Source: a virus. From it: a stretch of DNA of 64,000 bases. Both the position numbers and the translations under genes were made by a program. Positions 6,850 to 49,302 of this stretch are shown one piece after another. The notes under the pieces are model-generated. The model did not search any database, was not told where the DNA came from, and saw only the letters and a list, made by a program, of their open reading frames with translations. How positions within the stretch are numbered: position 1 is the stretch's first letter; each line of letters opens with the position of its first letter. Location: the IMG/VR virus record IMGVR_UViG_3300024180_000005, positions 1 to 64,000 of that record. One strand, 5' to 3'.

Positions 6850-8742
6850 TTATTTTACTTCTTCAAAGTCTGCATCTTCTACTTTATCATCACTGCTTGA
6901 TTCACTAGACTCATTAGTATTATTCTCGGTTGCACTTTCTTGATACAATCTAGTACTAATCTCATTCCAACTCTCATTTAACTTTTGAGATGCCTCATCA
7001 ACCTTAGTAACATCTTTCTCACCATATGCAACTTTTAGTGATTCTAAATCTGTTTTTAAAGTAGATTTGTCTTCTTCGGTCAGCTTTTCTTCAAATTCTT
7101 TCATCTGTTTCTCGGTTTGGAATATTTGACTATCTGCTTGGTTTAATTTCTCAACCTTTTCCTTTTCGAGTCTATCAGATTCCGCGTTTGCCTCAGCATC
7201 TGCTTTCATTTTTTCAATCTCTTCTTTTGTAAGCTGAGATCCGCCTTCGATTCTGATTTTGTTTTCTTTACCAGTTGCTTTATCCTGTGCAGAAACGGAC
7301 AAGATTCCATTTGCATCTATATCTAAAGTTACCTCAATCTGAGGAACTCCTCTAGGTGCAGACATAATACCATCAAGGTTAAACTTACCTAATGAACGAT
7401 TATCTTTTGCCATTGGTCTTTCTCCTTGTAGAACATGTAGCTCTACTGATGGTTGATTATCTGATGCAGTTGAAAAGGTTTCACTCTTTCTTGTTGGAAT
7501 TGTTGTGTTTGCCTCAATCAATTTTGTGAATACACCACCCATCGTTTCAATTCCTAATGATAAAGGAGTTACATCTAATAAAAGAACATCTGTAATTCCA
7601 CCATTTAATACCGCACCTTGAATAGCAGCACCTAAAGCAACAACTTCATCAGGATTTACTGATTTATTAGCTTTCTTACCAATGAACTTCTCGATACCTT
7701 CTTGTACTGCAGGAATTCTTGTAGTACCACCTACTAAAATTACTTCATCAATATCACTCACTTCCAGATCCGCATTTTTTAATGCACTCTTTGCACATGC
7801 AACTGCTCTATCAACCAAAGGTGTTATCATTTGCTCGAATTTGGCTCTTGTCAATTTTTTAACAAAGTGTAATGGTAATCCATCTTGTGCAGTAATATAC
7901 GGTAGGTTTATTTCAGATTCAGATGTTGATGATAATTCAATCTTAGCCTTCTCTGCAGCTTCTTTCAATCTTTGTAATGCCATTGGATCTTTTGCCAAGT
8001 CCATTGAATGTTCAGATTTAAACTCTTCTAACATCCAATTGATTATTTCATTATCAAAATCATCACCACCTAAGTGAGTATCACCGTCAGTAGATTTAAC
8101 TTCAAATACACCATCACCTATCTCCAATACAGAAACATCATGAGTTCCACCACCACAATCAAAAACTAGTATTTTAGAATCTGAGTTTTTCTTATCCAAA
8201 CCATATGCCAATGCTGCAGCAGTTGGTTCATTGATAATTCTTTCCACTTTTAAACCTGCAATCTCACCAGCTTCAATAGTTGCTGTTCTTTCCGCATCTC
8301 CGAAGTAAGCCGGAACTGTAATAACCGCTCTAGTAACTTCATGTCCTAAATAATCTTCGGCAGTTTTTTTCATTTTCTGTAAAATAATTGCAGAAAGTTC
8401 TTGAGGTGTATAATCACGACCATCAATGTTTACAACAGGTACATTTCCTTTTTTAGATTTCTTAACCTCATAAGGAACACGCTTTACTTCATCTGTACAA
8501 ACAGAATAATCCTTTCCAATAAACCTTTTAATAGAGTATATTGTATTTTTTGGATTTGTAACTGCTTGTCTTTTTGCAGGATCACCTATTTTTCTATCAG
8601 TTCCCGAAAATGAAACAATTGATGGTGTTGTTCTTCTCCCTTCAGAATTACTAATTACTACAGGTTCTCCGGCCTCAACAACTGCACAGGCCGAATTTGT
8701 TGTTCCGAGATCAATCCCGATAATTACATTACTTTTACTCAT
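6850..8742 (-). CDS. dnaK: Hsp70 chaperone DnaK
   Basis: [52 protein letters not shown]-terminal DADFEEVK. Confidence 0.98.
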
Positions 8743-26409: not shown

Positions 26410-26500
26410 TAGTATAATCCGACTTAGGACCGGATATAGATTACGCCCCACGGGTACTATATGAAAACCACTGAATTCGCTCCTCGGTGGTTTTCTTTTT
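26410..26500 (+). ncRNA. Candidate ~90-nt structured non-coding RNA
   Basis: TAATATATA at 26401-26409, GC-rich hairpins, 12-bp terminal stem plus T-run, no plausible ORF. Confidence 0.55.
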
Positions 26501-28235
26501 AGAGAATAATTTCAAATTTAATCTGACCACAATCAAATATTTTATAGGCACCAAAATTATCCTCCATTATCTTTGATTCTGAAAGGTTTTTATCATATCC
26601 CATTTTTATCAATTTTGATTTTTTCCATTTTTGTTTATTTGATCTTTTTTTATCAATTAAGTATGAGTAGTTTGGATAACTAGTACTTTTAACATAAAAT
26701 CCCAATTTATAATATAAATCACCTATTGACCAAGAAACATCAGAGAAGGATATAATCCTTTTTACATCATAATTTTTAATGAAATATTTCATTAGTCTGG
26801 ATGCACCACCTATAACATTAATATTTTTTTTATTACAAAACCTTGATAAGTTCCACTCATCACTCAACATGCTTTTCCTACCCTCGAAATGATCAAATGT
26901 CATTAAACTAACCAACTCATCATCGTAATATAAACCAATTTTCTTAGAGGCTGATGTATAACCTTGTATATGATTCTCATCTAGAAATTCTCTATACTCA
27001 CTTATATCTATAACCTCTTTTATAATACATTTTCTGGCATATATTTTATTTTTAGTTAGACCTAACCAATTTGTGATTTGTGATTTTATAATATCCTTTT
27101 TAAGATTCCAATCATCTTCCCAAATATGAATTATTCTAATTTCTCTTTCTTTAAAGTATTTGGTTTTATCAAGGTGGTAGTTTTTATCTTTAAATAATTC
27201 AGAGTGCCAATAAAGACCATTAAATTCAAATCCTATTTTCAAATCAGGTAAATAAATATCTATTTCCAAACCATCCCTATAACTCTGAATTATTTCACCA
27301 TCATATATACCTTTTATATAATCTAAAATTTCAATTTCTTTAAATGATGATGTTTTATTGACCGGATAACAAATTGTACATTGTTTATTATCTAGTTTAA
27401 GTCTTGAGTGATATAAATGTGAATTTGTTTCATAATAATGATCATTTTCTACACACTTAATTAGGTGTTTACCCTTACCTAAGTATTTAAAATAGTTTTT
27501 ATCACTATTTAAATTTGTTTTTATACTAGATGATCTATATTTTTCAAAAATGAGTTCTCTATATTTTTCAGATTTAGTGAAATTATCAACACCATATTTT
27601 TCTAAATTGGTTTTCTTTATTCTTTTGATAAAATCTTCGGTTTTAGTATAACTATCAAAACCGTATTTTTTATTTGAAGTTTCTTTTATTTTATTTTTAA
27701 TAATTTCTGATTTGAATGGATTATCGACTCCGTAATTTTCAAATGTTGTTTTCACCTTTTTCTTTTTAACACTTTCAATCTTTGATATATTATCAACACC
27801 ATATTTTTCAATACATGTTTCTTTGTATTTTAAATTTATTGATTCATAATCTAAATTTTCTTTTGATTTTGATATCTTATCTTTAACAGTATCTAGAATT
27901 GACGTATTTTCAACACCATATTTTTCTAAATTATTTTTCTTATAATTATATAATTTTTTATCTTTTAAAATAGGATCATTATTTGAACAAGATTTTGAAC
28001 AATATTCTCTATAACCTCTTTTATATGATAAAAATTTAACATCACCATCACAGACTTTACAAGTAGGTTTATTATTTTTAATTAAATATACTTTCTCTGA
28101 AATTGAATCACCTGGACATTTATCTAAAAAAGAATATAAATTATTTAAGTTTTTAGATACCCATTGCTCTTTAACCGAATTTAATTCTATTTTAGATAAA
28201 TATATTTCATATTCTTTTTTAACTATTTCATTCAT
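26499..28235 (-). CDS. Homing-endonuclease-like (Hef-type) protein: Zn ribbon, KYG repeats, PD-(D/E)XK/Vsr-like domain, C-terminal GNAT-like domain
   Basis: CKVC/YCSKSC, five xYG repeats, EIDIYLPDLKIGFEFNGLYWHS, NHIQG...LSRFC...GGASRL; start likely 28235 (TTATATATA 4 nt upstream). Confidence 0.8.
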   Translation of the reverse strand: MNEIVKKEYEIYLSKIELNSVKEQWVSKNLNNLYSFLDKCPGDSISEKVYLIKNNKPTCKVCDGDVKFLSYKRGYREYCSKSCSNNDPILKDKKLYNYKKNNLEKYGVENTSILDTVKDKISKSKENLDYESINLKYKETCIEKYGVDNISKIESVKKKKVKTTFENYGVDNPFKSEIIKNKIKETSNKKYGFDSYTKTEDFIKRIKKTNLEKYGVDNFTKSEKYRELIFEKYRSSSIKTNLNSDKNYFKYLGKGKHLIKCVENDHYYETNSHLYHSRLKLDNKQCTICYPVNKTSSFKEIEILDYIKGIYDGEIIQSYRDGLEIDIYLPDLKIGFEFNGLYWHSELFKDKNYHLDKTKYFKEREIRIIHIWEDDWNLKKDIIKSQITNWLGLTKNKIYARKCIIKEVIDISEYREFLDENHIQGYTSASKKIGLYYDDELVSLMTFDHFEGRKSMLSDEWNLSRFCNKKNINVIGGASRLMKYFIKNYDVKRIISFSDVSWSIGDLYYKLGFYVKSTSYPNYSYLIDKKRSNKQKWKKSKLIKMGYDKNLSESKIMEDNFGAYKIFDCGQIKFEIIL

Positions 28236-28356
28236 ATTGTATATATAAGCCATAACATCTCTCCTATAAAAGAAAGCCAGTATTGTTTAATATAATTTAA
28301 CATTAAAATAATAAACAAATAAGTTAAAAAAATATATATAACTTAAATAAAAATTT

Positions 28357-34586: not shown

Positions 34587-36548
34587 ATGATAATTAGTAA
34601 ACTAGTATTAGTTAAAAGTTCCAAATATTATAAAAACTTGGGATATGATATAGATGATAAGTATATAAAAGTTGATATATTACATTTACCAAAAGGATCA
34701 CATGTTATGATTTTATCAAAGTGTGATTATTGTAATAATGAGAAAGAAGTTTCATATAAAAACTATAATAGGAATATATCAATAAATGGTAAATTTTCGT
34801 GTTCTATAAAATGTGGAGTTTTAAAATCAAAGGAAACAAATTTAGAAAAATATGGTGTTGAATCAACGAATCAATTAGATTCAAAGAAATATAAATCTAA
34901 AAAGAGTCTGTTAAAAAAATATGGTGTTGATCATGTTTCAAAATTAGAATCTAGTAAAAAATCCAAAAGTATTAAAATGTTATCTAAATCTAATGAAATA
35001 TCCAATAATATTAAAAAATATTGGGAAAGCTTAGAAAGAGATGATATTGAAAGAATAAATAATAAGAGGGAATTAAGTAATATAAAGAAATATGGTTTTA
35101 AAAATGTTTCACAAGTTGAATTATTTAAAGAAAAGGTTAAGAAGACTAACTTAGAGAAATATGGTGGTTATACATATCAATCTAATATTTTGATGAGTAA
35201 GGTAATTGATACAAACTTGGAGAAATATGGTGTAACACATTCATCTAGTAATACTAAAATTAAAGAAAAGGTTAAGAAGACTAACTTAGAGAAATATGGC
35301 TTTGAATGTGTCAGTAAATCACCTATAATTAAAAAGAAGATAATTGATACAAATTTAGAGAAGTATGGCGTTGAAAACATTATGTTTTTACCAAACATTG
35401 TTAAGAATTTGAATGATAAGTTTTATAAAAAATACAAAGTAAATAGTTATTTTAAAACAGATGAATTTAAAAATAGTATAAAGTATAATCCGGTTGCAAA
35501 TGAGATTTTCAGAAAAAATCTTATAATTAACAATCATGAAAATTATATAAGTTATATTTCTAATAATATCTCTGAATTTAAATGTGATTGTGGTAATTCT
35601 CATACTTTTCAAATAAGTAGTGTTAATTTCCATAATAGAAATAATTCAAATCTACCTTTATGTACAATATGTTTCCCAATTGGTGAAAACTCATCTCTTA
35701 AAGAAATTGAATTAAGAAATTATATAAATTCAATTTATGAGGGTAAAATAATAAGTTCGTATAGAGATGGTTTAGAAATAGATATTTATTTACCTGATTT
35801 GAAAATAGGTTTTGAATTCAATGGTCTATATTGGCATTCCGAAGAGTATAAAGATAGAAACTATCACATAGATAAAACAAATTATTTTAAAAATAGAGGT
35901 ATAAGAATAATACACATCTGGGAAGATGATTGGGACAACAAAAAAGAAATAATTAAAAGTCAAATTATAAATTGGATTGGATCATCAACTAATAAAATAT
36001 ATGCAAGAAAGTGTGAGATTAGAGAAGTTGGTCAGTTAGATTATAAACTTTTTTTAGATAATAATCATATACAAGGTTTCATAAGATCAAAAATAAGAAT
36101 TGGTTTATATTATAAAGATGAATTGGTTAGTTTGATGACATTTGATAATTTAGAAGGTAGAAGAGTAATGCAAGAAGGTGGGTGGAATTTATCTAGGTTC
36201 TGTAATAAATTAAATATAAATGTAATCGGAGGGGCTTCTAAGTTATTAAAACATTTCATAAAATATTATAAACCAAATAGGATAATTAGTTATGCAGACT
36301 TAAGTTGGAGTAATGGGAAGCTTTATTATAAATTAGGATTTGAATTATCTAATATATCAAAGCCTGATTATAAGTATATAAACGAGAGTGTTCGTATAAA
36401 CAAACAAAAATTTACAAAAAGTAGGTTAAGAAAACTAGGATATAATACTTCCAGAACAGAAGATGAAATAACTAAGGAATTGGGTTTATCAAAAATATAT
36501 GGTTGTGGTCAATTAAAATTTGAACTTTTACTAGATAAATTACTATAA
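34587..36548 (+). CDS. Homing-endonuclease-like (Hef-type) protein with ~8 KYG repeats; paralog of 26499-28235
   Basis: CDYC, TNLEKYG repeats, identical SYRDGLEIDIYLPDLKIGFEFNGLYWHSE block, NHIQG, LSRFC, GGASKL, SYAD; late box 34574-34582. Confidence 0.82.
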   Translation: MIISKLVLVKSSKYYKNLGYDIDDKYIKVDILHLPKGSHVMILSKCDYCNNEKEVSYKNYNRNISINGKFSCSIKCGVLKSKETNLEKYGVESTNQLDSKKYKSKKSLLKKYGVDHVSKLESSKKSKSIKMLSKSNEISNNIKKYWESLERDDIERINNKRELSNIKKYGFKNVSQVELFKEKVKKTNLEKYGGYTYQSNILMSKVIDTNLEKYGVTHSSSNTKIKEKVKKTNLEKYGFECVSKSPIIKKKIIDTNLEKYGVENIMFLPNIVKNLNDKFYKKYKVNSYFKTDEFKNSIKYNPVANEIFRKNLIINNHENYISYISNNISEFKCDCGNSHTFQISSVNFHNRNNSNLPLCTICFPIGENSSLKEIELRNYINSIYEGKIISSYRDGLEIDIYLPDLKIGFEFNGLYWHSEEYKDRNYHIDKTNYFKNRGIRIIHIWEDDWDNKKEIIKSQIINWIGSSTNKIYARKCEIREVGQLDYKLFLDNNHIQGFIRSKIRIGLYYKDELVSLMTFDNLEGRRVMQEGGWNLSRFCNKLNINVIGGASKLLKHFIKYYKPNRIISYADLSWSNGKLYYKLGFELSNISKPDYKYINESVRINKQKFTKSRLRKLGYNTSRTEDEITKELGLSKIYGCGQLKFELLLDKLL

Positions 36549-39987: not shown

Positions 39988-40055
39988 AGGAATCTAAAAT
40001 TAAATATATATAGAAATTACAATTTAATTGTAAATAAAAAATAGTCCCATTAGTT

Positions 40056-40655
40056 ATTCGTCTTTCCAGTCAGTCCTCCCAATTTGTCTTTAATTTACCG
40101 CAAGATTTCTTAAAGCCAGAAACTATAGATACATATCAACCCGTCTTAGAGAAGAATTGGGTACAATATGAGAATGTTATAGATTATCTTAATTCTACTA
40201 TTAAGTCTGTTAATTTTCCAGGAATATCATTTGATATGCCAAAGCAAATATTAATGAGAGGTAAAGAAAGACAATTTAAACCTGCACAAAATGTTCAAGA
40301 TATAACAACAACTCATGAGTTGACTGTTACATTTAGATCAGTAGATGCCGATTTAAATTATTGGCTTATGTTTGATGTATTGACTAAACATTACCTTGAT
40401 GTTGAAAACGCATTCTTAAATCCATTTACTATAACTTGTGTAGATATACATAGGGACGCATTATATGTGATAAGATTTTATGAGATTATATTAAAATCTT
40501 TGTCGGATAATACCTTTAATTATTCACAACAAAAAGTTGTTGCTAAAGACTTTACAATGACCTTCCACTTTAATTTCTATGATATAGAGTTTATCTTGGA
40601 TAAGAGTAAGGTTCTGGAACTTGGTGCATTACCTCAGATTATTCAACGTCTTTAA
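40056..40655 (+). CDS. T4 gp3/tail-tube-like protein; frame open 66 codons upstream of ATG 40236 with no ATG/GTG/TTG
   Basis: IRLSSQSSQFVFNLP...IKSVNFPGISF...ELTVTFRSVDADLNYW resembles the gp3 family S-x-N-x-PG-x-S...L-x-x-x-F...D...NY pattern. Confidence 0.6.
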   Translation: MRLSSQSSQFVFNLPQDFLKPETIDTYQPVLEKNWVQYENVIDYLNSTIKSVNFPGISFDMPKQILMRGKERQFKPAQNVQDITTTHELTVTFRSVDADLNYWLMFDVLTKHYLDVENAFLNPFTITCVDIHRDALYVIRFYEIILKSLSDNTFNYSQQKVVAKDFTMTFHFNFYDIEFILDKSKVLELGALPQIIQRL

Positions 40656-40812
40656 TCTTATTATAAAGTTTATCAATAGAGTTCTTTCTTTTCCAAGATT
40701 TTGAAGAAGCCATATTCTGAATATTTTTTATTATATCAGCATCTATGTTCTTTGCGAGTTCTTCAGAAAGAATCTTCAGAAGTTCATCTTCTACGTTTAT
40801 GTTATCTTTCAT
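40639..40812 (-). CDS. Unannotated 57-aa protein resembling a major-capsid (gp23) helix
   Basis: MKDNINVEDELLKILSEELAKNIDADIIKNI...KRKNSIDKLYNKIKDVE*; ATG overlaps the acetyltransferase stop. Confidence 0.65.
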   Translation of the reverse strand: MKDNINVEDELLKILSEELAKNIDADIIKNIQNMASSKSWKRKNSIDKLYNKIKDVE

Positions 40813-41333
40813 ATTAAATTAAATCTACTAAATAAATCATCAAAATTAGATGAACATAAAAGAGGTGATATTTCATTAATTATTTGTTCATCCATATACC
40901 ACCACTTTAGTTTTAATAAATTACTTATTATTTCATCACCAAAACGATATTTAATAACTTTTGCCGGATTACCACCAACTATTGAATATGAGGGAACATC
41001 TTTAACAACATGTGAATTATTTGCTATAACTGAACCATCACCAATTTTAACACCACTCATTATAGTTGTGTTGGTTCCTATCCAAACATCATTACCTATT
41101 ATAACATCACCATTAGTTTTAGGATGGCCTTGTCCATTAAATCTATCAAATGTTCCTAACTCAACATGACCAAAAGGATATGTAGTTACCCAATCAGTTC
41201 TATGGTTACCACCTAAAAATACTTTTATATTACCACCAATAGAACAAAATGATCCAATATGTAATTGAGAACCTTCTCCCCAAGAAAATAAATTAATGTT
41301 ATTATGTCCATATGTATATCTACCAACTTTCAT
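40809..41333 (-). CDS. CatB/Vat-like hexapeptide-repeat O-acetyltransferase
   Basis: IGSFCSIG, NHRTDWVTTYPF, IGNDVWIG, VGGNPAKVIKYRF, KWW. Confidence 0.92.
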   Translation of the reverse strand: MKVGRYTYGHNNINLFSWGEGSQLHIGSFCSIGGNIKVFLGGNHRTDWVTTYPFGHVELGTFDRFNGQGHPKTNGDVIIGNDVWIGTNTTIMSGVKIGDGSVIANNSHVVKDVPSYSIVGGNPAKVIKYRFGDEIISNLLKLKWWYMDEQIINEISPLLCSSNFDDLFSRFNLI

Positions 41334-41427
41334 TATTTTATTTTTGAGTACTTTGGATTCAGACTATTTAATAGATTAGTTATTGCAACTATTAATAATT
41401 AGTGGTATAATTGTGACTACTCAAATT

Positions 41428-42009
41428 TTATTTTCTTTTTAATACAGTTAAACCGTTATTATTTTCATATTTTTCATATATTAACCATTTACTACCATTT
41501 TCTGTTTCTAAGAAATCTAAAACCGCATTCCATAATCCGTTTTTATTTGTAGATTTATTCTTAATATCATCACTCGCATGTTCATATATTTCTTCATCAA
41601 CTAAACCAAATGATGTTGTATCATGTAAAATTATATATTTTGATGACTTATTTGAGTGCAAATTCAATTCTTGTATTAATTGGTTATAGGTATGTAAAGT
41701 ATCAATAAATAATAAATCTGTTTTTTCTATTTCAATATTCAAAACATCAGATTCTATAAAAGTATAATCAATGCCATATTTATTTGCAATTTCAACCACA
41801 TCATTTATTTTTTGGTTTTTTACAATATCATAGCTAATCATTTTTTTTGGATTGGACATCAACAAAGGCCAAGTTGATGAAACCCATCTAACTCCCATCT
41901 CAGTTATATGATCACATTCTTTACCATATTTTAATAAAGTAGGTAAATGTTCATTGATATCAGATGAAATATTACACTGTTCTTTATAAATTAATTCTAT
42001 TTCTTTCAT
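41428..42009 (-). CDS. Class I SAM-dependent methyltransferase-like protein
   Basis: EMGVR, SYDI, DLLFIDTLHTY, ILHDT, NNGLTVL. Confidence 0.8.
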   Translation of the reverse strand: MKEIELIYKEQCNISSDINEHLPTLLKYGKECDHITEMGVRWVSSTWPLLMSNPKKMISYDIVKNQKINDVVEIANKYGIDYTFIESDVLNIEIEKTDLLFIDTLHTYNQLIQELNLHSNKSSKYIILHDTTSFGLVDEEIYEHASDDIKNKSTNKNGLWNAVLDFLETENGSKWLIYEKYENNNGLTVLKRK

Positions 42010-42087
42010 TTTAATATTATATTTTTTATTTATTGGTTGTGTTTACTCAATATTTACTATCTTTATAAGATAGTTTAATGGTAAAGT

Positions 42088-47184: not shown

Positions 47185-49302
47185 TTATTCATCTTTTTTC
47201 TTTCTTGGCTTCCTAGTGGCCTTTTCTATAATAACAAATGATTCATCATCTTCTTTGTTATAATCTAGTAAGAATTTTGTCCCTTCTTTTGGATTATTCT
47301 CAATGATATAATCTGTTACAATATCATCAACCCATCTTTGAATTGCCCTCTTTAAAGGTCTAGCACCATATTTAGGATCATACCCTACTTCAACTAAGTG
47401 ATCTTTCAAAGTTTCAGTTATTTCAGTTGGGTAACCAATATCTGCAGCCCTTTTAACAGTTTTAACTAACTCTAAGTCTACAATTTTAAGAATCTCTTCT
47501 TTACCTAAATCTCTGAAGTAGATAATTTCATCAATTCTGTTGATAAACTCTGGTGCGAATTTGTTTTTCAACTCTTTCTCTAGGATACCTTTGATTTCTT
47601 CATCTCTTACATTTTCTTTATTCTTTGTAGAGAATCCAACTCCTGTACCGAAATCTTTAACTAATCGAGTACCTACATTTGAAGTCATTAAGATAATACA
47701 GTTTTTAAAACTTACTTTTCTTCCGTGTGAATCGGTAACTTGACCATCATCTAACATCTGTAAGAATAGGTTAAATACTTCTGGATGTGCTTTCTCAATC
47801 TCATCAAAAAGAATAACTGAATAAGGCTTTCTTCTAATTCTATCAAGAACATTGGTATCTTCATAGCCAACATATCCTGGTGCAGAACCTTGTATTTTAG
47901 ATAAAGAGATTTTATCCATATATTCTGACATATCTAATCGAATCAAAGAATCTTCAGAATCAAATAAATATTTTGCAATTTGTTTAGCTAACTCGGTTTT
48001 ACCAACTCCCGAATTACCAATAAGCATTCCAGAAAAAACCGGCTTGTTAGCATCTTTCATACCAACTCTACCTCTTTGAATTGCTCTTACAACTTTCTTA
48101 ACGGCATCATCTTGACCAATAACCTTTCCACAAATCTCAGAACCCATCTTAGCAAGTCTTGTATTTTCTTTCTCACCAACTTTTTGTAAAGGAATACCAG
48201 TCATCATAGAGACTACTTGTGCAACATTATCCTCGGTAACTATTTGTTTATTTCTAGAAGATTCTTCTTCCCAGTCTTTTCTTGCCTTTTCTAAACTCTC
48301 ATTTAATTGACGTTCAACATCTCTTAATTTAGCAGCATCTTCATATTTCTGTGATCGAATAACTTCATTTTTCTTCTCTTTTATATCGGCTATTTTATTC
48401 TCAATATCTGTAATTTCTTTAGGAACTACAATATTTGAAATATGTACTCTTGATCCGGCCTCATCTAGTGCATCAATTGCCTTATCTGGTAAAAATCTAT
48501 CGGTAATATATCGATCTGTTAAATCAACACAAGCCTTAATTGCTTCTGTTGTATATTCAACATTATGGTGAGACTCATATTTATCTTTAATATTATTTAA
48601 GATTTCCATACTTTCTTCAGAAGAAGCAGCCTCAATTGTAACTTTTTGGAATCTTCTTTCTAAAGCACCATCTTTCTCAATATGTTTTCTATACTCATCA
48701 AGTGTAGTTGCACCAATGATTTGTATCTCACCTCTTGCCAATGCTGGTTTAAACATATTAGATGCATCCATTGATCCAGAAGCACCACCGGCACCAATCA
48801 TTGTATGAATTTCGTCGATAAATAAAATAACATCCGTATTTTTCTCCATCTCTGTCATAAGAGCTTTAATTCTTTCTTCAAATTGTCCTCTATATTTAGT
48901 ACCAGCAACCATTGACGCCAAGTCTAGCATAACAACTCTTTTATTGAAGAGAATTCTACTTACTTTTCTTTGAATAATTCTTAAAGCTAATCCTTCTGCT
49001 ATAGAAGATTTACCTACACCTGGTTCACCAATTAAAATTGGATTATTCTTTTTTCTTCTTGCTAAAATTTGAGAAACTCTTTCGATTTCTTTCTCTCTTC
49101 CAACAATTGCATCAAGTTTACCATCTTCTGCCATTTTAGTCAAATCTCGACTATATGTATCTAGAACCGGAGTTTTAGACTTTGCGTCAGTTTTTTTACC
49201 TGAACTATAAGAACTATCATCATCATCATCATCAAATGTCGCCTTCATATTTGGCAATCCTTTAAGGTATTCATCCCCTTTTGATTTTTTATTATTTCCC
49301 AT
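47185..49302 (-). CDS. clpC: ClpC-type AAA+ unfoldase lacking the Clp N-domain
   Basis: GEPGVGKS, KYRGQFEER, IDEIH, UVR-like YEDAAKLRD, GNSGVGKT, ClpP-binding GVGF loop, GARPLKR. Confidence 0.9.
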   Translation of the reverse strand: MGNNKKSKGDEYLKGLPNMKATFDDDDDDSSYSSGKKTDAKSKTPVLDTYSRDLTKMAEDGKLDAIVGREKEIERVSQILARRKKNNPILIGEPGVGKSSIAEGLALRIIQRKVSRILFNKRVVMLDLASMVAGTKYRGQFEERIKALMTEMEKNTDVILFIDEIHTMIGAGGASGSMDASNMFKPALARGEIQIIGATTLDEYRKHIEKDGALERRFQKVTIEAASSEESMEILNNIKDKYESHHNVEYTTEAIKACVDLTDRYITDRFLPDKAIDALDEAGSRVHISNIVVPKEITDIENKIADIKEKKNEVIRSQKYEDAAKLRDVERQLNESLEKARKDWEEESSRNKQIVTEDNVAQVVSMMTGIPLQKVGEKENTRLAKMGSEICGKVIGQDDAVKKVVRAIQRGRVGMKDANKPVFSGMLIGNSGVGKTELAKQIAKYLFDSEDSLIRLDMSEYMDKISLSKIQGSAPGYVGYEDTNVLDRIRRKPYSVILFDEIEKAHPEVFNLFLQMLDDGQVTDSHGRKVSFKNCIILMTSNVGTRLVKDFGTGVGFSTKNKENVRDEEIKGILEKELKNKFAPEFINRIDEIIYFRDLGKEEILKIVDLELVKTVKRAADIGYPTEITETLKDHLVEVGYDPKYGARPLKRAIQRWVDDIVTDYIIENNPKEGTKFLLDYNKEDDESFVIIEKATRKPRKKKDE

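Follow-up and report, generated by a model that had tools for sequence, protein, structure and literature searches.

The open reading frame at 40639-40812 on the minus strand of the window, the 64,000-nucleotide stretch of viral DNA analysed here (positions 1 to 64,000 of IMG/VR record IMGVR_UViG_3300024180_000005), is, on comparative evidence, a real gene that encodes a conserved protein under purifying selection. Judged from its sequence, the product is paralogous to part of the major capsid protein and has gained a basic helix. Its first helix is, as we hold with high confidence, homologous to the strand-loop-spine-helix segment in the P domain of gp23-type capsid proteins, from which it most likely arose by partial duplication. 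As a full explanation, a capsid-derived helical protein acting as an assembly-modulating mimic is a serious candidate, if short of an even chance. Stand-alone genes for the capsid spine helix were not described in the literature that we searched.

The frame of 57 amino acids had been predicted from the DNA alone, and the ORF listing contains it as described: its ATG overlaps the TGA of the acetyltransferase gene (ATGA), and its product contains both NVEDELLKILSEELAKNIDADIIKNI and KRKNSIDKL. Conserved copies in related genomes, which the original prediction had proposed to look for, were found in 62 close clusters and 436 clusters overall. The close homologues (51-64 aa, 61-93 % identity) came from a word-indexed search, and scans of viral and metagenome contigs added 51 further loci with members of down to 38 % identity, all of them small. 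An exhaustive profile search of 1.84 billion representatives delimited the mini family at 436 clusters with E <= 1e-3, of which 92 reached E <= 1e-10 and nearly all measure 40-85 aa. Among 13 close members, the median dN/dS by the Nei-Gojobori method was 0.19 at a dS of ~0.9, a sign of purifying selection. Contigs from metatranscriptome libraries span the mini gene (X8 contig, 40036-42040; X9 contig, 40229-40741), with assembled coverage that is even across the whole 6 kb, that may represent DNA carry-over and that speaks to neither strand nor timing. Promoter and terminator scans around the gene scored at or below the shuffle expectation. The features of the locus are collected in Table 1.

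Table 1. Coordinates of the mini gene, its two segments and its neighbours in the window.
Feature	Position	Strand	Evidence and remarks
Mini gene	40639-40812	-	57 codons plus stop; ORF listing; conserved stand-alone protein
Residues 4-34, acidic amphipathic, homologous to the gp23/gp24 P-domain loop and spine helix	40711-40803	-	Pfam Gp23 profile 167-203; hhalign; genome and PDB searches
Residues 37-57, basic C-terminal helix (SKSWKRKNSIDKLY...)	40642-40704	-	Alignments A1, A2 and A4; almost invariant in the close subgroup
Hexapeptide-repeat acetyltransferase	40809-41333	-	Pfam Hexapep, E 4e-11; upstream; last enzyme of a glycan-type operon
Convergent neighbour, ~199 aa	40038-40655 (open frame)	+	Tail-tube-family fold, weak evidence
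Conserved neighbour, 645 aa	38050-39987	+	Links the window to 634-642 kb huge phages

AlphaFold2, supplied with the family alignment, predicts two helices for the mini protein (residues 7-36 and 38-56; mean pLDDT 90.9). A Foldseek search of the PDB with this two-helix model gave no match, as expected for so small a model, and the ESM Atlas held no usable match. Counted from the sequence, helix 1 carries a net charge of about -4 and the C-terminal third one of about +4. Residues E8, E10, E18 and D24 show little or no variation in the close 57-aa subgroup, and two of them, E18 and D24, are unchanged across the broad mini family. The window's close subgroup lacks the N-terminal lead-in, showing NIN where most members have G-[ILM]-D, and conservation there is highest in the basic tail, SKSWKRKNSI[D/E]KLY. 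No capsid counterpart of this tail was found, as matches between the mini-family profile and capsid proteins lie almost entirely at profile positions 3-53 of 71, that is, in the N-terminal part. The tail itself varies by subgroup (KRKNSIDKLY versus KKxKINKILEKIK). A T4 prohead-protease motif (L/I-x-E), sought by eye in the family alignment, does not occur at a conserved position.

The original prediction had likened the peptide to a conserved helix of T4-type capsid proteins, and T4 gp23 indeed carries DADAELSGILATEIMLEINREVVDWI at residues 285-310, in agreement with the helix pattern that had been described. In profile searches, the predicted similarity was marginal for the window protein taken alone and well beyond chance at the family level. 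The window protein aligned with positions 167-203 of the Pfam Gp23 profile (PF07068) at E 2.5e-4 and 21.0 bits, short of the gathering threshold of 24.4 bits; it matched phrog_138 ('major head protein') at E 1.1e-3, and its pairwise BLAST similarity to the capsid protein was weak. At the family level, Pfam Gp23 was matched at E <= 0.01 by 32 of 36 members, the lowest E being 1.6e-8. Gp23 was also the top match for every one of ten re-tested members (19.9-30.8 bits), three of them above the cutoff (25.5-30.8 bits) and seven at 19.9-24.3 bits. All these matches are confined to positions ~148-208 of the 376 in the profile. Other small Gp23-profile matches in related records (profile 219-261 and others, 13-19 bits) belong to unrelated ORFs and were taken as noise.

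Comparisons between alignments and searches in the reverse direction led to the same capsid segment. Using hhalign, the broad mini family (A4) was aligned with an alignment of huge-phage capsid proteins together with T4 gp23 and gp24 (A3) at a probability of 87.7 % (P 3.4e-6) over 48 columns covering capsid residues 327-374, pairing mini sequences of the type '...DVQNIGEHYGLDIEEELASMLSHELAKSIDAEI...' with capsid sequences of the type '...EIEDIKANTGMDIVQKMESILVNELSQTISKQIV...'; a narrower family alignment reached a probability of only 29 %, over capsid residues 344-374. When the mini-family profile was run against eight complete phage genomes, the best match besides the mini gene was always a capsid ORF (E 2e-8 to 2e-5). 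In LR756502 and LR745206 it was the sole significant one, with 26.5 and 27.1 bits and E ~3e-6. The T4 genome gave two matches, gp24 (E 8e-6, 23.5 bits) and then gp23 (E 2e-3), and in five further complete genomes the top match was a capsid ORF of 551-609 aa (E 2e-8 to 2e-5), with 33 bits for LR756508 and 29.6 for a Flavobacterium phage. Among all PDB sequences, the top match was T4 gp24 residues 180-224 (E 0.0035), followed by gp23 chains. A tblastn search of 50,697 phage genomes with one 68-aa member yielded 235 records, and those of the listed matches that carry an informative annotation are major capsid genes, except two mini genes of huge phages.

The residues that are conserved also coincide. 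Five positions are invariant in T4 gp23, gp24 and the huge-phage capsid proteins (G344, D346, L355, E358 and I363 in P0065 numbering), and they stand in register with G, D, L15, E18 and I23 of the mini family, in which the last three are invariant as well. Family-level statistics and reciprocal searches therefore identify the capsid resemblance as homology rather than chance. An ordinary amphipathic helix that happens to look like gp23, or a decaying relic of a capsid gene, deserves next to no credence: the sub-threshold score and the weak pairwise BLAST result of the window protein alone would fit such an origin, which is contradicted by the family statistics, the reciprocal searches, the purifying selection and the wide conservation.

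The phage lineage possesses a gp23-type capsid protein of its own: LR756502 and LR745206 encode proteins of 567-572 aa that score 89-96 bits, and the capsid protein of the lineage is 74-100 % conserved across many contigs. The capsid gene of these two genomes lies ~240 kb from the mini gene. As a side observation, an ORF of ~385 aa with tandem repeats of ~14 residues (...SEYIAENLDKNI.Y...) is located just upstream of the capsid gene in both (L094:2-1156 in LR756502; L095:3-1160 in LR745206); this ORF might encode a scaffold or core protein with which the mini protein could interact. The scores on own and foreign capsids bear on a further proposal, namely that the mini protein is a weapon between phages, a dominant-negative fragment that would poison capsid assembly of co-infecting T4-like phages. 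In its favour, capsids of other lineages resemble the helix about as closely as the own one does (26.5-27.1 bits for the latter against 33, 29.6 and 23.5). No discrimination against the own capsid is seen and nothing points to self-immunity, and we regard this speculative proposal as very improbable.

Despite its homology, the mini protein is, as far as sequence comparison goes, a derivative of the Gp23 family and not a capsid protein, because the window protein falls short of the Pfam threshold and the capsid fold is absent, while the homologous segment keeps the register and the conserved positions of the Gp23 family. The full HK97-type fold, with E-loop, P domain, A domain and the T4 insertion domain, takes up ~400-600 aa, whereas the mini protein comprises 57 aa and two helices. 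With T4 gp23 and gp24 (PF07068), it shares ~30-48 homologous residues in the same register, the invariant G, D, L, E and I, and an acidic amphipathic character. Unlike them, it is devoid of E-loop, A domain, insertion domain and the rest of the P domain, has gained a basic C-terminal helix, and is encoded by a separate gene far from the head genes. We also considered small head proteins of T4, of which gp67 reportedly resembles gp23. No match to gp67, gp68 or gp22 was obtained; with the mini-family HMM, gp67 scored -1.1 bits and gp68 0.0 bits, and no segment of either was aligned. Furthermore, the genes for gp67 and gp68 reside inside the head module, between portal and protease, whereas the mini gene lies outside any such module.

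Longer and fused relatives bridge the gap between mini gene and capsid. Searches with the window protein revealed none, but the exhaustive profile search did yield a few (P0227, P0209, P0231, P0323, P0324, P0329 and P0333). Three of them, P0329 (161 aa), P0324 (138 aa) and P0333 (119 aa), also hold the capsid strand that precedes the helix ('KLNVAWTPELVQDV...') and reach 43-56 bits with the Gp23 profile, and in P0323 (152 aa; 57 bits) the helix is joined to the C-terminal part of gp23; these relatives of 119-161 aa are thus all above the Pfam Gp23 threshold. In the four proteins, pieces of gp23 (strand and helix, two copies of the helix, or helix and C-terminal part) are combined with unrelated sequence, which suggests that capsid-fragment genes were born repeatedly. 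P0227 is of another kind, an FkbM methyltransferase fused in frame to a C-terminal mini-protein module, with the same gene order as in the window; the fusion is probably a read-through of the usual overlapping stop and start at the end of a glycan operon. In LR756501 (735 kb), a 175-aa ORF (L159:1507-2034, minus strand) ending in ...EQMMVDELTKTIQAEIVKKI... matches the mini profile at E 1.6e-5; it could be distantly related and carry another domain at its N-terminus. A match in P0221 (3,190 aa) was discarded as a false positive caused by identical weak repeats.

The record from which the window was taken is an 80-kb fragment (16 % complete according to CheckV), and near-identical DNA is present in many seawater metagenome runs. 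By its gene content, the virus is related to huge-phage genomes of 634-642 kb: the 645-aa neighbour, for which neither Pfam nor PHROGs provided a match, is 57-60 % identical in tblastn to ORFs in LR745206 (634 kb) and LR756502 (642 kb), and it has more distant relatives in records of 636 and 735 kb. Al-Shayeb et al. 2020 (PMC7162821) place curated genomes of 634, 636, 642 and 735 kb in the 'Mahaphage' clade, for which Bacteroidetes are predicted as hosts, and we equate LR745206, LR756502 and the 636- and 735-kb records with them, presuming from the matching lengths that they are the same genomes. The record further carries a T4-type RNA ligase, homing endonucleases, an Hsp70 and a ClpB/ClpC-like ATPase. 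Two large homing-endonuclease paralogues (DUF7487 / phrog_3339) lie less than 10 kb apart (window 26499-28253 and 34587-36548). The Hsp70 is full-length (817 bits) and the ATPase is of the ClpB/ClpC double-AAA type (6850-8742 and 47185-49302); this chaperone set could be relevant to the folding of a very large capsid shell.

Two genomic settings of the mini gene were found, and neither is a head module. In subgroup 1, which includes the window and the two Mahaphages, the mini gene terminates a sugar- or glycan-type operon of varying gene content. Upstream of it are acetyltransferase, methyltransferase and glycosyltransferase genes in the window, a PglD-like acetyltransferase, a DegT aminotransferase and a GT-D in L083, a nucleotidyltransferase in L085 and a GT11 fucosyltransferase in LR756502. 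Relatives do not share the juxtaposition with the acetyltransferase: in none of 80 loci holding a homologue of that enzyme was the mini gene found within 4 kb. On the other side, the mini gene converges on the ~199-aa gene followed by the ~645-aa gene, with overlapping 3' ends (by 17 nt in the window), in 30 of 53 related loci. The model of the ~199-aa protein is of low confidence (pLDDT 57), and all its fold matches are tail or tube-family chains, namely those of the T4 neck-tail and baseplate tube, Hcp and other tube proteins. Several observations concern this neighbour. Its frame in the window has no ATG, GTG or TTG start (40038-40238) and reads ...VIRLSSQ... where relatives begin with MRLSSQ..., which implies an ATA or ATT start or a sequencing difference; an RNA-library contig departs from the window by single bases at 40115 and 40128. 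In LR745206, an extra ORF of 199 aa (L093:6137-6736, minus strand) separates the mini gene from the tube-like gene and interrupts the conserved 3' overlap.

In subgroup 2, characterized by the tail KKxKINKILEKIK, the mini gene is situated between a 4HBT thioesterase and a thymidylate synthase gene, with start and stop overlapping. The operon, a replication module, also encodes a family-B DNA polymerase, a helicase and an Fpg/Nei-like glycosylase. One thymidylate synthase of this subgroup (L137:2466-4566) is split into pieces of 174 and 276 aa by a 234-aa ORF, which by eye looks HNH-endonuclease-like. A stand-alone mini gene was not found in LR756504, LR756501, LR756500, LR756508 or a Flavobacterium T4-like phage, all of which have the same capsid type; the gene is therefore lineage-restricted and dispensable for gp23-type assembly in general.

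These settings raise the question of whether the capsid-derived helix still has anything to do with capsids. It could have been exapted as a generic amphipathic module of a small regulator, or of a binder of nucleic acid or host protein acting through the basic tail. The contexts are non-structural, above all the operon of thioesterase, thymidylate synthase and DNA polymerase, and the block under the highest conservation in the close subgroup is the very part that the capsid lacks; according to the model, moreover, the hydrophobic faces of the two helices can bury each other, so that the protein may be a self-contained hairpin. Against this stands that the strongest constraint across the whole family falls on the capsid-invariant positions, acidic surface included, as would not be expected of a generic helix, and that the basic tail differs between subgroups. 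On balance, we deem an employment unconnected with the capsid possible, if on the unlikely side.

What the segment does in T4 gives a more specific lead. The stretch aligned to the mini family, roughly gp23 273-312 and gp24 179-224, takes in the last part of a P-domain strand, a loop (HGMD) and the first part of the spine helix. Mutations of T4 gp23 that alter head length, A268V, A275T, D285V and D287V/N, cluster at this segment, adjoining a short, negatively charged P-domain helix. At the quasi-threefold axes, this helix touches a patch of basic charge on a strand of the adjacent capsomer, and these charge contacts are common to gp23 and gp24 and are kept through expansion (Fang et al. 2022, PMC9546572). 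In the alignment, T4 D285 falls on the conserved D of the mini family and D287 on E8, which is invariant in the close subgroup. The conserved face of the mini helix may correspond to an exposed face of the capsid.

We therefore propose, tentatively, that the mini protein acts in trans as a mimic of the acidic P-domain surface of the capsid and thereby modulates head assembly. The free protein would display a conserved acidic helix surface which in T4 lies at or near the quasi-threefold contact between capsomers, and it would bind the usual partner of that surface, which may be a scaffold or core component or else the basic patch on the P domain of an adjoining capsomer. In this way, it could cap, delay or tune the association of capsomers while a very large head is being assembled, and the basic C-terminal helix might either mask the acidic helix within a hairpin or supply complementary charge. 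This role in assembly, one of those envisaged by the original prediction, is favoured because the residues conserved in the mini family are those conserved in the capsid, acidic surface positions included, as expected if that surface were still in use, and because T4 genetics places the determination of head length in this very segment. It is opposed by the non-head settings, whether among glycan operon and tail-like genes or in a replication module, by the apparent lack of the gene in related phages with the same capsid type, and by the loss of the G-x-D lead-in from the window subgroup (NIN for GID). A stricter form of the proposal holds that the mini protein, as a free copy of the length-determining capsid segment, sets the curvature at quasi-threefold junctions and helps to specify a very large triangulation number. 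We judge this form unlikely; if true, it would bear on how the triangulation number needed to package ~500-640 kb is reached, and a capsid-derived size regulator would be without known precedent.

Partial parallels exist among satellites. CpmB of SaPI1 and Sid of P4, both small and helical, change how capsids are assembled by sitting at an assembly interface; CpmB achieves this through its resemblance to part of an assembly protein. The mini protein differs in that it resembles the capsid protein itself and is encoded by the phage's own gene. The two satellite-encoded proteins are directed against the helper phage, and they mimic the scaffold, compete with it or build a cage around the shell.

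Another idea raised at the outset was that a capsid fragment might titrate a defence that senses capsids. Here, the mini protein would be expressed before the capsid and would fill the recognition site of a sensor without activating it. The premise that capsid surfaces, short or whole, are read by other proteins applies to capsid-triggered abortive infection (Gol/Lit, CapRel, Avs7 and Dsr1), and many bacterial sensors recognise major capsid proteins. However, CapRel and Lit/Gol are host sensors activated by binding of capsid protein, and the Gol segment that triggers Lit lies near the gp23 N-terminus, a part of the protein different from this helix. We know of no sensor for this capsid helix. 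Avs7 and Dsr1 are likewise activated by capsid protein, through extended interfaces on the whole fold (preprint 10.64898/2026.01.04.697583). As known sensors are switched on by binding, and the interfaces of Avs7 and Dsr1 are extended, a free fragment would be expected to trigger them or to be ignored. The mini gene, moreover, shows the evolutionary pattern of a stable lineage gene, with a single copy, a constant position and strong constraint over 38-93 % identity. In this it is unlike typical anti-defence genes with their patchy distribution and fast turnover, although it is lineage-restricted; and no match to a defence or anti-defence family was found in Pfam or PHROGs. The decoy reading gains a little from the replication-type operon of subgroup 2, which is presumably early or middle and may mean early expression, and from the large accessory repertoires of huge phages (PMC7162821). 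Taken together, we consider a decoy or inhibitor of this sort decidedly unlikely.

Several hundred small, unannotated ORFs in metagenomes of aquatic phages, with 'Gp23' matches below threshold, can now be recognised as one family, for which an annotation as capsid protein would be wrong. It has long been asked how gp23-type shells set their size, and genetic work on T4 leads to precisely the capsid segment from which the mini protein appears to derive. A conserved, separate copy of that segment in phages with some of the largest known heads offers a concrete and cheap reagent with which to test it. If the mini protein instead acts on host immunity or on an unrelated target, it would plainly exemplify the recruitment of a capsid fragment to a new function.
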